Under the pieces are notes generated by a model that did no database searches, had not been told where the DNA came from, and saw nothing but the letters and a program-made list of their open reading frames with translations. Position numbers and translations under genes: made by a program. DNA of 11,120 nt from Leptospiraceae bacterium (GTDB lineage Bacteria > Spirochaetota > Leptospiria > Leptospirales > Leptospiraceae): positions 1 to 11,120 of the forward strand of contig JADKKG010000114.1 of assembly GCA_016720625.1 (NCBI GenBank), written 5' to 3'. Shown here one piece after another: positions 1 to 11,120 of the stretch; the stretch's first letter is position 1; each line of letters begins with the position of its first letter.

Positions 1-526
1 TAGCATTTGATAACCAAGCGAAGACGAAAGCCCCTAAGGTTAACACACCGAATGCGTTACCTGCCCACCAACCAAGTGAAATTGAATAAAAAAAATTCCA
101 TTCGACCATTCCATTTAAACATAGACCTAGAACTCCGATCAATGCACTAATTGTAGGCGCAATGATAATTGCAATCAGAAAGAACATACCAACATTCTTT
201 AGACTAAGCGGATATTTGTTATTCTCTAGTCTGGATTTTAAAAAATAGGCACTGAACAAAGGCTCAAGACTATTTCCGATAACAGTGGCTATTACAAAAC
301 CAATCGGTGCACCTGTTGAATAGGTTGTAAAAAATGCTCCTATACTAATTGCAGGCAAATACTTATAACCCCCGAAAAGTAAAACAGGAAGTGACAGACC
401 AGAAGGAAGCCAAATTAATGTAACATTCGATTGAATAAATGCAATTTTTAAACCGATCTTGGCAAAAAGAAAAAAAGCAATGGAAATTAAAATATTCGTG
501 ATGATAAATCTAATCTTAGAATGCAT
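1..526 (-). CDS. N-terminal ~175 aa of a MASE1-domain membrane sensor protein (partial; 3' end lies beyond window start). Likely the input domain of a histidine kinase or GGDEF/EAL protein.
   Basis: Manual translation of the minus strand from ATG at 524-526 gives an open frame to position 1 with no stop. It is absent from the ORF track only because its stop is outside the window. The sequence is MHSKIRFIITNILISIAFFLFAKIGLKIAFIQSNVTLIWLPSGLSLPVLLFGGYKYLPAISIGAFF...LGWWAGNAFGVLTLGAFVFAWL. It shows multiple hydrophobic helices plus the 'WLPSG' and 'WWaGNafGvL' motifs typical of the MASE1 membrane sensor domain. There is an in-frame TAA just upstream of the ATG, and AGGAAG lies ~15 nt upstream. 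Confidence 0.6.
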   Translation of the reverse strand, partial: MHSKIRFIITNILISIAFFLFAKIGLKIAFIQSNVTLIWLPSGLSLPVLLFGGYKYLPAISIGAFFTTYSTGAPIGFVIATVIGNSLEPLFSAYFLKSRLENNKYPLSLKNVGMFFLIAIIIAPTISALIGVLGLCLNGMVEWNFFYSISLGWWAGNAFGVLTLGAFVFAWLSNA

Positions 527-554
527 TAAATTGTCATTCAGCTTCCTTTAAGAA

Positions 555-1600: not shown

Positions 1601-3046
1601 CTAAAAGGTAAGTGCTTGGTCAACTATGACTTTACGCTCTCCTGATTTGCCTACTACCATGATCGCATAACCAGCCCAAACTCCAAGAGAAACTGCGCCA
1701 TCGTATTTTGTATCAAGCGTGATATAGCGAGGAGGAGTATACTTATTTCTTCGTTGAAACGAATCGCTGGCTATTTGTTCTAATTCTTCTGCTTCTGGTT
1801 CTGATAGCAAGGAGTCAGCAACTGAAAATTCACGTTTGCTGGAAGCGGGAGAAGGTGTGGCTTGCGGTCTTGGAGGCAAAGTAGGCTTATCCGCTGGTAT
1901 TGCTTGCTTACGTAGTTCAGAATTAATTTCTATGGCACGATCATTTCCCGGAAACCAAAGACCTACTTGACGATGCTCCAAAATTCTACGAACAATTACT
2001 TCAAAGCGAGGATCAGGTAAGAACATATCGGGACCACGACGAAGTTTTACTTCACCAGTGAGACGGTTCATTACATAGCGCGCTTCTCCAAGTGGAATTG
2101 CTACAGCGTAGTGCACCTCGTTATCCTCATACTTGACGATTGCGTGTTCTTTACGTGGAAAATAAATCATTTGGTCTTTGCCAGTAAAGAAAAGCTCATC
2201 ACCTTCTTTGTATTGTGCCTCACCTTCTGTATAAGGAGCGATTACTTTGATGTAGATTCCTTTGATTTCACTTAGCTCAATCGCTCTATATTTGCGACTA
2301 CCATCTTTCTGGATAAATGTTTCCGTTGGTTCTGGAAATACAACCTCGGGACCTCGCACATAACGTTTATTACCATCTTCATCTAAGAGGATACAATATT
2401 CTAGCCGCTCAAGAGTAACTGCTTCGCGAATGTATTGGTTTCTAACATCTTTTACTACTTCAATACCAGTTGGGGGTATATAGAACGAAACCTCAGTTCC
2501 TTTAATGGTGATATGTTTCCCTAGTTTGAGTTTTGAAATATCAAATTCAGTCTGACCGGTGCTTGATTCACTTGTCTTGATGACCGCCTTATTCCAATTA
2601 TCCTTAGCGGCAGTCTCGTCATACACTCGCACAACCAAGTATTGATTCGAACGAAAATGATGTCCTTTTACTACATTTACCATTTGCCCCGACCAGAGCG
2701 GAAAAGAAATTGGTCCGGGGATATTCACTTTATGTCCCACATTGAGCTCGATGAGGCTATTCACTGTTCCAGTCTTTGGATTAGAATTGTCTTTCGCAGG
2801 ATTTTTTAGAACAAGATACCAACCTTCTGGAGATATTGCAAAGGTTTGAATGGCTCCTTCTAGAGAACATTTTTCAAAGCGCTTCGTTTTCTCATTGAAG
2901 ATGATTGGCTGATCGGTGTTGGAGAGACTTGCTTTATATGGACCAACGTAAATATTAATATTACCTTTTGTTTGGTCAGAAATAAATGCAAATTCATTTG
3001 GGGAGAGAATTAAATCCCTTTCGCGTTGTCTTTCTTCTACTGCCAT
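1601..3046 (-). CDS. Major vault protein (MVP) homolog, N-terminal part: tandem MVP (vault) repeat domains. Upstream half of the split mvp gene.
   Basis: ORF-track protein. The N-terminus 'ILSPNEFAFISDQTKGNINIYVGPYK' resembles MVP '[28 protein letters not shown]'. It has repeated ~55-aa units with the MVP-repeat signature (G-x-x-Y/F-I/F-P … E-V/I-V), e.g. 'GTEVSFYIPPTGIEVVKDV…', 'GDELFFTGKDQMIYFPRKEHAIVKY…' and 'RRGPDMFLPDPRFEVIVRRIL…'. AGGAG lies 7 nt upstream of the ATG at 3046. Confidence 0.75.
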   Translation of the reverse strand: MAVEERQRERDLILSPNEFAFISDQTKGNINIYVGPYKASLSNTDQPIIFNEKTKRFEKCSLEGAIQTFAISPEGWYLVLKNPAKDNSNPKTGTVNSLIELNVGHKVNIPGPISFPLWSGQMVNVVKGHHFRSNQYLVVRVYDETAAKDNWNKAVIKTSESSTGQTEFDISKLKLGKHITIKGTEVSFYIPPTGIEVVKDVRNQYIREAVTLERLEYCILLDEDGNKRYVRGPEVVFPEPTETFIQKDGSRKYRAIELSEIKGIYIKVIAPYTEGEAQYKEGDELFFTGKDQMIYFPRKEHAIVKYEDNEVHYAVAIPLGEARYVMNRLTGEVKLRRGPDMFLPDPRFEVIVRRILEHRQVGLWFPGNDRAIEINSELRKQAIPADKPTLPPRPQATPSPASSKREFSVADSLLSEPEAEELEQIASDSFQRRNKYTPPRYITLDTKYDGAVSLGVWAGYAIMVVGKSGERKVIVDQALTF

Positions 3047-3142
3047 AAAAATCTCCTGCTAATAGTTTATTCTGCAAATCTTAATTTGAATAATAGAACA
3101 AGCAAGTAGAAAAATATTCGTTTTATTTTTTACTTTGAGTAA
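3047..3142 (-). promoter_or_regulatory. AT-rich intergenic region between the che operon (cheY-like stop) and the vault-like gene. Likely contains the che-operon terminator and/or the vault-gene promoter and RBS.
   Basis: This is the only sizeable non-coding gap in the window (96 bp). On the minus strand it carries AGGAG 7 nt before the ATG at 3046, a possible sigma70-like TTGCTT-N16-TAAGAT, and a weak A/T-only hairpin followed by a T-run (minus strand, ~3115-3140). Confidence 0.3.
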
Positions 3143-3520: not shown

Positions 3521-4768
3521 TTATAAAATTGGAAATCGAACCCAAACGCATACATCTTTCATATTGTTTTCTCGTCTCATATTATTGTCTGTTGTATAAA
3601 ACGAAATACTCCCTTTGTGTAAATCAATAATTTTATTTACAACTGTCAAACCCAGACCAAATCGAAATGTTTCCTGCATGAATCTATCATCTACAACATT
3701 AGTCAATCGAAAAAATGGTTCAAAGATTTTATGCGCATTACTCTCCGTTATCCCCACTGTTCCGTCTGAATTCTTGTAGGCGGGATTCAGGATTCTGATT
3801 CCAATATCTGATTTATCATGGGAAAAGAGAATATAGATTGTATCCCCATCTTCCGAGTATTTAATTGCATTTGTTAATAATTCATCAAAGACTAGCTTCA
3901 AATTTTCTGGGCTGGCAGTAATTGATCTTCCGGCTAGGTCTCTTGGAAAATCACCCATAACTATCTTCTGATTTTTAATTCCAGCAACTGGTTTCATACC
4001 TTTTACCATTTCGGTTAATGCAGCATAGAAATCTTTCAGGGTTAATTTCCCTATATAAAAATCCTTTTCCGCTAATATGGCTTGTGTTTTAGTTAAACTA
4101 TCACTTAGTTTTAGAATTTCGTCGTAGTTGTCTTTTAATAGGTGATAAATTTTTTCATGAACTAAGTAAACTTTTTTCTCTTCATCTAATTTAGCTTTTG
4201 AAAATAAAATACTCAGTGTGCTAATAAGTGATCCGAGACCACTTCCATGGAAGAAGCTAATATTGATTTGGTGTATTAATTCATTTGCAAGAGATTCGAC
4301 TTTTCTAGTATCAAGTTCTTTTCTCCAATCAAATACTTTAATCATGGATTCGAAAACTTGTTTCTCGTTTGATTTAAAATCAGAAATCTTGGACATCACC
4401 TTTCCGTAGGTGATAGCCTTTGTTATCGCAAAATGAAAATTGAATTTATAAATTGGGTAGGAGATAATATCATACACATGATAGTTTTCCATCATTTGTA
4501 GAAACTTGTCTCCTTCCTCTCGATTGATTAATAGAATAACCAATTGAAATGGATATTCGGAAAGAATATTTCCAAGATTTTTTTGATTTTCGCTACTCGT
4601 GTCAAGAAAATCATAAACGAGTAGCCATGTGTCATCTGATTTAAGATAACTTGTGAGATTATCCATATTATCCGCTACGTTGAAAGCGTAAGTAAGATCA
4701 TCAACGTAGGTTTTCACCTGCTCTGTTATTTCTTTGTTTTGAGTATAGAGTAATATTTTATCAGACAT
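3521..4768 (-). CDS. Atypical cytoplasmic histidine-kinase-like protein: N-terminal receiver-like (probably pseudo-receiver) domain plus C-terminal HATPase_c (GHKL) catalytic domain. No canonical H-box is recognisable.
   Basis: 415 aa. The C-terminus has the N-box 'DELLTNAIKYS', a G2-like 'RFGLGLTVVNKIIDLHKGSIS' and an F-box-like 'FEPFFR', which is the classical HK ATP-binding domain. The N-terminal ~120 aa has a receiver-like beta/alpha pattern (KILLYT…WLLVYDFLD…QLVILL…DIISYP) but lacks the DD pair. No 'HExxxP' DHp motif is seen; the only candidate is the H in 'FFHGSGLGSLISTL'. Its start overlaps the cheB stop by 8 bp. Confidence 0.75.
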   Translation of the reverse strand: MSDKILLYTQNKEITEQVKTYVDDLTYAFNVADNMDNLTSYLKSDDTWLLVYDFLDTSSENQKNLGNILSEYPFQLVILLINREEGDKFLQMMENYHVYDIISYPIYKFNFHFAITKAITYGKVMSKISDFKSNEKQVFESMIKVFDWRKELDTRKVESLANELIHQINISFFHGSGLGSLISTLSILFSKAKLDEEKKVYLVHEKIYHLLKDNYDEILKLSDSLTKTQAILAEKDFYIGKLTLKDFYAALTEMVKGMKPVAGIKNQKIVMGDFPRDLAGRSITASPENLKLVFDELLTNAIKYSEDGDTIYILFSHDKSDIGIRILNPAYKNSDGTVGITESNAHKIFEPFFRLTNVVDDRFMQETFRFGLGLTVVNKIIDLHKGSISFYTTDNNMRRENNMKDVCVWVRFPIL

Positions 4769-8219: not shown

Positions 8220-11120
8220 TTACTTCAAATCAATTTTTTTCTTTCCGCCAGATTGTTGGTCTCTTCTTTTATCATCTTTTGATTTCTTAATTTGAAATCT
8301 TTTTACCATTGTTTGGAATGCTTCTGCTTGGCTAGACAACTCAAGACTAGCTGCTGAGCTTTCTTCTGCTGTAGCAGCAGCACTCATTGTCACCTGTGAA
8401 ATCTGATTGATACCAGTTGTAGTCTCTACGACCGACGAAGACTGCTCAATCGAAGCACTCGCGATGTCTTTCACTAGCTCTGTAACATCTACAACACCAG
8501 CTGTCATCTTATTCAATTCGTTTGCAGTTCTTCCCGCAATGTCCATACCAGAGCGAACTGTTTTAATCGAGCCTTCAATCATCTTAGTGGTTTCTTTCGC
8601 AGCATTCGCGCTACGAGAAGCGAGATTACGAACTTCTTCCGCCACCACGTTAAATCCTTTTCCATGTTGACCTGCACGGGCAGCTTCCACCGCAGCGTTT
8701 AATGCGAGTATATTTGTTTGGAATGCGATTGCATCAATTTCTTTGATAATCTTCGCAATGTTTTCGGAAGTTTCACTGATTTCTTCCATCGCTTTGAGCA
8801 TTCCCTTCATTTCGTTATTACTAGAAACTGCTTGGTCTTTCACGTTCATAGCTTGGTCACTTGCGTCCTTCGCATTCTTCGCGTTATCCTTAGCTTTGAG
8901 TTCGATTACTGCCAGCGTTGAAGTAATCTCTTCTACGCTACTAGCTTGTTCGTTTGATCCTTGCGAGAGAGATTGGCTGGAGTCAGCCACTTGTCTAGAG
9001 CTAATGAGGATTTGATCCGAAGCATTGATGATTTCACCAATGAGCTCATTGAAGGAATCAACGATGAGAGTGAGTGCTTTTTTAATCTCAGCGAAATCTC
9101 CCATAAAGTCTTTTGTTACTTCAACAGTTAAGTCACCTGCTGACATAGAAGAGAGGATACGCGAAATTTCCCCCACATAATCGTTTAACGTTACCAGACT
9201 TGTATTAAGAGCAGTCTTAATAGTAGCATGATCTCCCTTGTAATCACCGAGCATTCTAGCTTTTAAGTTTCCTTTAGACAATTCTAGCAACACTGCGGAA
9301 GCTTCTTGCACTGGAAGGATAACAGCGTCTAATGTGTTGTTTACCCCATCCACAATCTTACGGAAGTCACCTTGGTGTTTGGTCGCATCTGCACGAGTTG
9401 CAAGCTTACCATCAATAGCCGCTTTCGCAAGCATACCTGCATCAGCCACAAGTGCGTTTACGTTTTCAATACAACGATTAAGGTTGTTCTTTAGAGTGTT
9501 AAAATCCCCATTATAAGTATCCGTAATTTGATTTGGAATTGCACCGCGAGAAATTCTATCTACATAATCAGCAGCAACGTTAAGAGGACCAATCACCGAG
9601 TCTAATGTCTGATTAACTCCTTCCACAATCTTACGATAGTCGCCTTGGTGTTTAGTAGCATCAGCACGAGTTGCAAGCTTACCTTCGATAGCTGCTTTCG
9701 CAAGCATACCGGCATCAGCCACAAGAGCATTTACATTATCAATTGCGTTGTTTAAGTTGTTTTTAATTGTGTTAAAGTCTCCATTGTAAGTATCCGTAAT
9801 CTTAGTCGGAATAGCCCCGCGGGAAATTTTATCTACATAATCCGCGGCAACATTAAGAGGACCTATCACAGAGTCTAACGTCTGGTTAACCCCTTCTACA
9901 ATCTTACGATAATCGCCTTGGTGTTTAGTAGCATCAGCGCGAGTTGCAAGTTTACCTTCTACTGCTGCTTTCGCAAGCATACCGGCATCAGCCACAAGTG
10001 CGTTTACATTATCAATCGCATTGTTTAAGTTGTTCTTAAGAACGTTGAAATCACCGTTGTAAGTGTCAGTAATTTTAGCAGGAATAGCACCACGAGAGAT
10101 TTTATCTACGTAATCAGCAGCAACATTGAGAGGACCGATCACAGAGTCTAACGTCTGATTAACCCCTTCCACAATTTTACGATAGTCGCCTTGGTGTTTA
10201 GTTGCATCCGCACGTGTTGCGAGCTTACCTTCAATAGCTGCTTTCGCGAGCATACCGGCATCAGCCACAAGTGCGTTTACATTATCAATCGCATTGTTTA
10301 AGTTGTTCTTGATAACATTAAAGTCACCGTTATAAGTATCGCTGATCTTTTCAGGGATAGCACCACGAGAGATTTTATCAACATAATCAGCAGCAACGTT
10401 GAGAGGACCGATTACCGAGTCTAACGTCTGATTAACCCCTTCTACAATTCTACGATAGTCACCTTGGTGTTTAGTAGCATCAGCACGTGTTGCAAGCTTA
10501 CCTTCTACTGCTGCTTTCGCAAGCATACCGGCATCAGAGACGAGGTTGCCGATATTATTTTTCATTAGCATCAACCACTCATGAATTTGATCTTGTTCGG
10601 AAGCTTTGTTCATTGTCGCAGTCAAATCACCATTCGATATCTTATTCACATAGGCTACAAGATCAGTAAGCCACAAATGAACTCCGTTGACGGCATCTTT
10701 CATTTTTTGATGATCACCACGACATTCGATCTCCATTCTTTCGCGAAGATTTCCGCCTCTAATAAGTCTTAATACTCTATTTCCTTCCCCTATTGGAATT
10801 AGAATCGCATCGAGCATTGTGTTTACGCCAATTAAAACATCTGCATAGGCACCTTTGAATTGTTCTGGTTTTCCTCTTTCATCTAACATACCTGCTTTAG
10901 AGGCTTCTGTAAGACGAAGTAATTCTTTTTGTAAGGCTTGCAAGACTTGCATAACAGTGATTAAACTCTTTGAGAGTAAATCATTTTCAGAGCGAACATT
11001 TACTTTGACGGAGAGATTTCCTTCAGAAATGGCAACTGCTGCCTCTGCTTGTTGGTTAATCGCATTGATCGCCAAATTGAGGTTATTCTTTAGAGTGTTG
11101 AAATCGCCATTATACGTATC
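8220..11120 (-). CDS. mcp: Methyl-accepting chemotaxis protein with a very long tandem poly-HAMP array and a C-terminal MCP signalling domain (partial; the N-terminus lies beyond the window end).
   Basis: The ORF is open to the window edge. The track's 'M' at 11075 is a TTG inside a HAMP unit, not the real start. The signalling domain shows the hallmark '[37 protein letters not shown]'. Candidate methylation sites are 'SSVEEITST' and 'SIEQSSS'. Upstream are at least ~14 consecutive HAMP-like units (AS1-connector-AS2, e.g. '[18 protein letters not shown]…[19 protein letters not shown]' and '[25 protein letters not shown]'). No transmembrane segment falls in the in-window part. Confidence 0.95.
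9171..10535 (-). repeat. Tandem 273-bp (91-aa) direct repeats inside the MCP coding sequence. There are four near-identical protein copies plus one half-diverged copy, and each unit encodes two HAMP domains (di-HAMP module). More diverged HAMP units continue to the window end.
   Basis: The marker 'gaggacc…tctaa(t/c)gtctg(a/g)ttaac' recurs at 9584, 9857, 10130 and 10403, an exact 273-bp period. The proteins are ~95% identical ([10 protein letters not shown][IV][80 protein letters not shown]). DNA copies are only ~85-90% identical by eye, mostly at synonymous positions. Confidence 0.9.

Follow-up and report, generated by a model that had tools for sequence, protein, structure and literature searches.

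Organization of the locus

The stretch of DNA analysed here (the window, 11,120 nucleotides that make up a whole contig of a Leptospiraceae metagenome-assembled genome) carries all of its long open reading frames (ORFs) on the minus strand (Table 1). Read in this direction, the genes form a co-directional run in which a che-like cluster is followed by a histidine kinase-like (HK-like) protein, a stand-alone receiver (REC), a vault-like gene and, at the contig end, the kinase gene with which this analysis is concerned. The che cluster comprises genes encoding a methyl-accepting chemotaxis protein (MCP), CheW, CheA and CheB, and no CheR was found within the window. The HAMP_2 units of the MCP are partly encoded by a 273-nt tandem repeat at positions 9318-10537 (4.5 copies, 85% match); its ORF starts at a TTG codon inside a HAMP-like stretch, and neither a membrane domain nor a ligand-binding domain was detected in it. 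The HK-like protein contains a HATPase_c domain with no detectable HisKA or Hpt domain, and is best described as kinase-like.

A scan of metagenome contigs yielded two, L081 and L082, that come from the same species as the window and are 94.4% and 96.6% identical to it, respectively, at the DNA level. Both share its gene order as well as its spacer between the vault-like and kinase genes. Five further loci, L001 to L005, represent sister species.

The vault-like gene is divided into two ORFs in the window. Specifically, alignment of the DNA with that of L081 places a 1-nt deletion (GG to G) at approximately position 1621/1622, within 1601-1625, where GTTGGACC has become GTTGACC. The gene is intact, encoding a protein of 829-844 aa, in L081, L082, L001, L002, L003 and L005, and the intact L081 protein matches Vault_3, MVP_shoulder and Band_7. 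The split reflects either an assembly error or a real pseudogene. An exact-sequence look-up of the 343-aa vault-like ORF of the window returned no match; that ORF is a product of the frameshift carried by the assembly.

Table 1. Features of the window and of the related loci to which it was compared. Unprefixed positions are those of the window.
Feature	Location	Strand	Details
5' part of hybrid histidine kinase gene	1-526	minus	175 of ~817 codons; truncated by contig end
Mini-ORF of 3 codons (ATG ACA ATT TAA)	526-537	minus	stop overlaps kinase start as TAATG; kept in L081 and L082
Spacer between vault-like stop (TAA 557-555) and kinase start (ATG 526-524)	527-554	minus	28 nt; same in L081 and L082
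AGGAAG, Shine-Dalgarno-like	542-547	minus	15 nt before ATG526, 4 nt before ATG537
C-terminal ORF of vault-like (MVP) gene	555-1586	minus	shoulder/SPFH domain and coiled-coil tail; MVP_shoulder E=1.5e-24, Band_7 3.6e-05 (Pfam)
N-terminal ORF of vault-like gene	1601-3046	minus	from DNA alignment with relatives' intact genes
Upstream region of vault-like gene	3047-3142	minus	~70 nt conserved in all sister species
HK-like protein	3521-4768		415 aa; between CheB and stand-alone REC
Methyl-accepting chemotaxis protein	8220-11075		seven HAMP_2 units
MASE1	L081 protein, residues 11-289		86.4 bits; model positions 2-298 of 299
PAS_3	L081 protein, residues 360-409
HisKA	L081 protein, residues 436-501		67.6 bits
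HATPase_c	L081 protein, residues 549-663		92.1 bits
Response_reg (REC)	L081 protein, residues 697-808		89.3 bits
Positional hybrid kinases	L081:10001-12454; L001:11138-14029; L002:11094-13892; L003:8317-11067; L005:8573-11029
Palindrome ATTGATTGCA-N8-TGCAATCAAT	L002:11093-11120; L004 ~9790-9820; L001 ~11100-11130
Inserted small gene in vault-like/kinase gap	L003:7918-8304; L005:8165-8548		127-128-aa protein with signal peptide

The gene downstream of the vault-like gene encodes a predicted MASE1 hybrid histidine kinase

Translation from the ATG at 526-524 yields an ORF of 175 codons that remains open to base 1. With a TAA in frame at 550-548, the N-terminus cannot extend to a canonical start codon further upstream. 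The claim of an earlier note on this DNA, that the ORF represents a MASE1-type membrane sensor, is borne out by a match to the Pfam MASE1 model (PF05231) of 59.6 bits, where the gathering score is 29.8 (E=3.5e-16), and by the two motifs on which the note had relied, WLPSG and WWAGNAFGVL, which are found at residues 39-43 and 153-162, respectively. The match extends over residues 11-173 of the fragment and model positions 2-170 of 299, and the fragment thus holds the N-terminal ~57% of the domain. Consistent with this assignment, the NCBI label for the ORF is 'MASE1 domain-containing protein, partial'. A protein search with the 175-aa fragment recovered no relatives, the self-match alone being returned, and the full MASE1 domain, when searched against PDB sequences, matched no solved relative.

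MASE1 is a polytopic integral membrane domain with approximately eight predicted transmembrane helices. Hydrophobic segments were identified here by Kyte-Doolittle hydropathy only, a crude method, which gives approximately five in the 175-aa fragment: three at a strict threshold (19-aa window, 1.6) and five as local peaks (15-aa window, at least 1.0). Residues 1-290 of the L081 protein contain approximately nine hydropathy peaks, reaching up to 2.72, and the highest 15-aa value beyond residue 320 is 1.38. By this crude measure, both the fragment and the L081 protein have the character of a polytopic membrane domain. The fragment therefore combines an HMM match with ~5 hydrophobic segments, rather than the pairing of fewer than ~4 helices with no HMM match that the earlier note had named as the contrary outcome.

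The output domains of the window gene lie past the contig end, as the earlier note had anticipated, and are supplied by the same-species contigs. L081 and L082 each encode an uninterrupted 817-aa protein, with 171 of the 175 residues of the window fragment (98%) being identical to it, in which an N-terminal MASE1 is followed by PAS_3, HisKA, HATPase_c and REC domains. In the L081 protein, the H-box SHELRTP (His 446) and the LDIQMP and KP motifs of the receiver are intact; this orthologue accordingly possesses each element of a hybrid histidine kinase, namely HisKA with its histidine, HATPase_c and a fused receiver. The window gene is predicted to be a MASE1-PAS hybrid histidine kinase and not a c-di-GMP enzyme, its C-terminal part being read from the same-species contigs. 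In both of these contigs a convergent gene encoding an NAD-binding dehydrogenase abuts the kinase stop codon, which makes the kinase the last gene of the co-directional run.

The junction between the vault-like and kinase genes

The vault-like and kinase genes lie on the same strand and are separated by 28 bp, exactly as the earlier note described, and this same-strand arrangement with an operon-like spacer is found in the window, L081 and L082 alike. The AGGAAG hexamer that the note had taken for the ribosome binding site of the kinase does exist at 547-542, but it is poorly spaced for ATG526, a distance of 15 nt being long for a Shine-Dalgarno site. The overlap between the stop codon of the mini-ORF and the kinase start makes translational coupling of the two possible, a suggestion that is purely speculative.

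Of the further statement that the spacer leaves no room for a promoter or terminator, the second part stands, in that no terminator-like site is present, whereas the kinase may have a promoter that lies further up, within the 3' end of the vault-like coding sequence. Consensus scans of the minus strand detected neither promoter-like nor terminator-like sites at or near the spacer, and no promoter-like match was obtained throughout 527-1220, although the promoter scan performs weakly on AT-rich Leptospiraceae DNA (8 sites versus 9.2 expected) and the lack of a match is for this reason uninformative. Additionally, RNA spanning the junction is no more stably folded than its shuffled counterparts (z=-0.96) and forms no stable hairpin. 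Because the 28-nt spacer contains no terminator, read-through from the vault-like gene is plausible.

The segment of ~70 nt conserved upstream of the vault-like gene (TTCTACTTGCTTGTTCTA...AATTAAGATTTGCAGAATA...AGGAGA) places, in the alignment, its AGGAGA element ~6 nt before the vault-like ATG. In L001 and L004, homology begins ~68 nt before the vault-like start codon even though the genes upstream are unrelated and divergent. Since this segment is conserved whatever the upstream gene, the vault-like gene very probably has its own promoter region, and positions 3047-3142 likely correspond to the promoter/5'UTR of a transcription unit made up of the vault-like and kinase genes. As judged from sequence, co-transcription of the two genes is plausible in the species represented by the window, where the contraction of the spacer suggests that the kinase is probably carried on the vault-like transcript.

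Conservation of the adjacency among sister species

Eighty genomic loci encoding relatives of the vault-like protein were compared. L001-L005, together with L081/L082, are the only loci in which the kinase lies downstream of the vault-like gene; in a tblastn search, the MASE1 fragment of the window matched at this position in L001, L002, L004 and L005 only. The kinase of L003 possesses an orthologous core and four PAS domains but no MASE1. Within this group, at least five species-level lineages have kept the kinase directly downstream, in the same orientation, despite changes in the upstream context, which is the che cluster in some sister species and consists of unrelated, divergent genes in L001 and L004. 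Such persistence exceeds pure chance adjacency and counts against mere synteny.

The junction itself varies considerably within the group. In L001, L002 and L004 the spacer measures 61-113 nt and includes a palindrome (ATTGATTGCA-N8-TGCAATCAAT) that is conserved immediately before the kinase start and could be an operator or some other regulatory element; a search of the window, with its 28-nt spacer, found this palindrome to be absent. The longer spacers, each with a palindrome of its own, suggest separate regulation of the kinase in these species. In L003 and L005, the gap is occupied by a small gene that is absent from the window, and whose product has no Pfam match and consists in part of approximately seven Cys-Lys repeats (C-K-x-x-A-S-x-D-K-S-W-C).

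Kinase identity among the sister species is 41-61%, and this holds in every domain. The flanking genes are far better conserved, with identities of 88-93% for the vault-like protein, 92-95% for REC, 76-87% for the HK-like protein (conserved in L002, L003 and L005) and 77-80% for the downstream dehydrogenase; the kinase diverges ~4-5 times faster than the vault-like protein. The possibility that the positional kinases are non-orthologous replacements of one another was considered and rejected, as their cores are 46-70% identical to each other and 34-41% identical to paralogs. The sensor region has been reshuffled among the sister species, in which MASE1 with one PAS domain, MASE1 with two PAS domains, MASE1 alone, and four PAS domains without MASE1 are observed.

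A wider survey of vault-like loci

Cytophagales, Myxococcota and Riflebacteria are among the groups in which relatives of the vault-like protein occur. In the more distant Leptospiraceae loci L006-L008, the vault-like protein is 67-68% identical and no kinase follows it; the genes found downstream are instead unrelated, and encode a HAD hydrolase, a membrane protein with PAS only, and an unknown protein with an MBOAT acyltransferase after it. The membrane/PAS protein of L007 was examined as a diverged counterpart of the kinase and discarded, showing no similarity to it and neither MASE1 nor kinase domains.

Across 82 loci, an HMM built from the MASE1 domains of the clade (E<=10) matched only L001, L002, L004, L005, L081 and L082, and in the other 76 loci the same search revealed no MASE1 gene around the vault-like gene, over flanks of up to 10 kb. 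When 126 immediate neighbours from 72 loci were scanned against Pfam, no family had more than five members; the commonest (at most 5 of 126) were LepA/EF-type GTPases and CorA, contributed by closely related loci, and neither MASE1 nor any two-component family was among the recurrent neighbours in these 72 other loci. Similarly, when the three genes flanking the vault-like gene on either side were clustered by BLAST, no partner common to different phyla emerged. Many other loci feature wide spacers around the vault-like gene or a convergent downstream neighbour. The adjacency was, in short, not encountered across distantly related genomes that encode vault-like proteins.

The earlier note had singled out the coupling of a sensor to a vault-like shell protein as an association in need of explanation. 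These comparisons tell against such a coupling, inasmuch as the arrangement extends no further than a single group of sister species and is absent from 76 other loci, L003 lacks MASE1, and the junction in sister species is either widened to 61-113 nt, with a palindrome, or interrupted by the gene for a small secreted protein. Other signalling genes are found around the vault-like gene in this family: the window has its che cluster, HK-like protein and REC, L008 both an adenylate cyclase and a kinase of the 7TMR-DISM type, L007 the PAS protein, and L081 a second hybrid kinase. Given that Leptospiraceae loci are so crowded with signalling genes, a sensor as neighbour is unsurprising and would be expected by chance.

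Interpretation

The reading that we favour, to which we assign a probability of roughly 75%, is that the gene encodes an ordinary membrane-bound hybrid kinase, probably reached by read-through from the vault-like promoter region, and that its position reflects inherited synteny rather than a functional module. Mechanistically, the polytopic MASE1 domain would provide the input and would be followed by a cytoplasmic PAS domain; the HisKA/HATPase_c core would autophosphorylate on histidine, and the C-terminal receiver would take the phosphoryl group and feed a phosphorelay, both of these steps being drawn from knowledge of the families. The spacer would have contracted to 28 nt that contain no terminator, the kinase would be transcribed at least partly via the vault-like promoter region, and the adjacency would represent synteny within one closely related group of Leptospiraceae whose genomes are dense in signalling genes. 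Set against mere synteny is the 28-nt spacer, which implies that the two genes are probably transcribed in common in this species.

An alternative explanation is that the vault-like protein and the downstream kinase cooperate in this Leptospiraceae clade. The kinase might, for example, sense the assembly of the vault-like protein or its association with the membrane via the SPFH-like shoulder, or might control vault-like expression, and co-transcription would keep the amounts of the two proteins matched. Such cooperation is in keeping with the shared strand, the short spacer and its lack of a terminator, with the retention of the kinase downstream in L001-L005 and L081/L082 despite a varying upstream context, and with the orthology of the kinase cores. 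It also has a precedent in the MASE1 domain of Escherichia coli DgcE, which is directly targeted by a partner, the large GTPase RdcA (PMC6510439); since MASE1 can take input from a protein partner, it is not absurd to suppose a protein-protein link between the kinase and the vault-like protein by way of the SPFH-like shoulder of the latter. Against this stand the limitation of the adjacency to one closely related species group, the loss of MASE1 from L003 and the extra gene inserted in L003 and L005, the longer spacers of sister species with their own palindromic element, the rapid divergence of the kinase relative to the vault-like protein, and the crowding of these genomes with signalling genes. 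The comparative evidence, in which every broader test was negative, argues against a tie between the two proteins, and we regard their cooperation as unlikely.

A second alternative, in our estimation quite improbable, retains the kinase as an independent gene transcribed from a promoter of its own within the 3'-terminal coding sequence of the vault-like gene, the short spacer being a product of compaction that entails neither common regulation nor common function. Sister species have the space for, and conserve, a separate element upstream of the kinase, and the missing promoter match carries little information where the scan returns 8 sites against 9.2 expected in AT-rich DNA. Nevertheless, the minus strand gave no promoter-like match from 527 to 1220 and, as no terminator follows the vault-like gene, transcripts reading through from it would contain the kinase in any case. 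That the ORF belongs to a small orphan membrane peptide or a decayed pseudogene, ending just past the window without an output domain, is scarcely credible: the frameshift in the adjoining vault-like gene makes local decay or poor assembly conceivable, but L081 and L082 contradict this suggestion with an intact 817-aa ORF that includes all kinase domains and whose first 175 residues are 98% identical to the fragment.

Should the kinase be tied to the vault-like protein after all, a dedicated sensor kinase would make vault function experimentally approachable. To our knowledge, nothing is known about the function of bacterial homologues of the major vault protein, and a kinase that, in this Leptospiraceae genus, monitors or controls how the vault-like shell assembles at the membrane, via MASE1 or another sensor region, would, if true, furnish the first regulatory handle on it; we consider that specific proposal very doubtful. 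Under the favoured reading of an ordinary kinase in inherited synteny, the sensor gene is one more MASE1-PAS hybrid histidine kinase, publicly annotated as MASE1-containing, in a lineage rich in such sensors and, as it stands, is of little consequence.

Comparison with known systems

In domain order, MASE1-PAS-HisKA-HATPase_c-REC, the kinase resembles EspC of Myxococcus xanthus, which acts in the Esp developmental phosphorelay. The EspC model (NCBIfam NF052574, HisKinEspCMyxo) aligns with the L081 protein almost from end to end, residues 13-764 corresponding to model positions 3-733 of 785 (E=1.7e-71), and with the window fragment at E=9.6e-25. The score of the L081 protein is nonetheless 241.4 bits against an equivalog cutoff of 1200, from which it follows that the protein is not an EspC ortholog; the two differ also in that they come from different phyla and that no Esp partners are found in the locus of the window.

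An N-terminal polytopic MASE1 domain followed by PAS is likewise shared with DgcE of E. coli and YfgF/PdeF of Salmonella, in which MASE1 serves for signal input or protein interaction: that of DgcE is the target of RdcA (PMC6510439), and that of YfgF modulates the response to aspartate (PMC3718329). Unlike these proteins, whose output domains are GGDEF/EAL, the kinase described here has a histidine kinase and a receiver as its output and, in a further difference from DgcE, the locus of the window showed no RdcA/RdcB-like partner.

Homologues of the major vault protein have previously been recognized in Myxococcales, Cytophagales and Oscillatoriales, in a study that makes no mention of Leptospiraceae, operons, neighbours or kinases and includes no gene-neighbourhood analysis (bioRxiv 10.1101/872010). 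The gene neighbouring the kinase belongs among these homologues, its product having a length of ~830 aa and matches to Vault_3, MVP_shoulder and Band_7; it is distinguished by being located between signalling genes and by being split by a frameshift in the assembly.

Lastly, the best NCBIfam alignments of the kinase core and receiver of the L081 protein are with hybrid kinases of the BarA, TorS, LuxQ and ArcB type (E 9e-105 to 7e-79). The kinase differs from these in that its scores fall far below the equivalog cutoffs and its sensor domains are dissimilar; additionally, it has no fused Hpt domain, and the only Hpt identified nearby is the P1 domain of CheA. The likeness to BarA, TorS, LuxQ and ArcB in the core and receiver implies that the kinase operates by a His-Asp phosphorelay mechanism.
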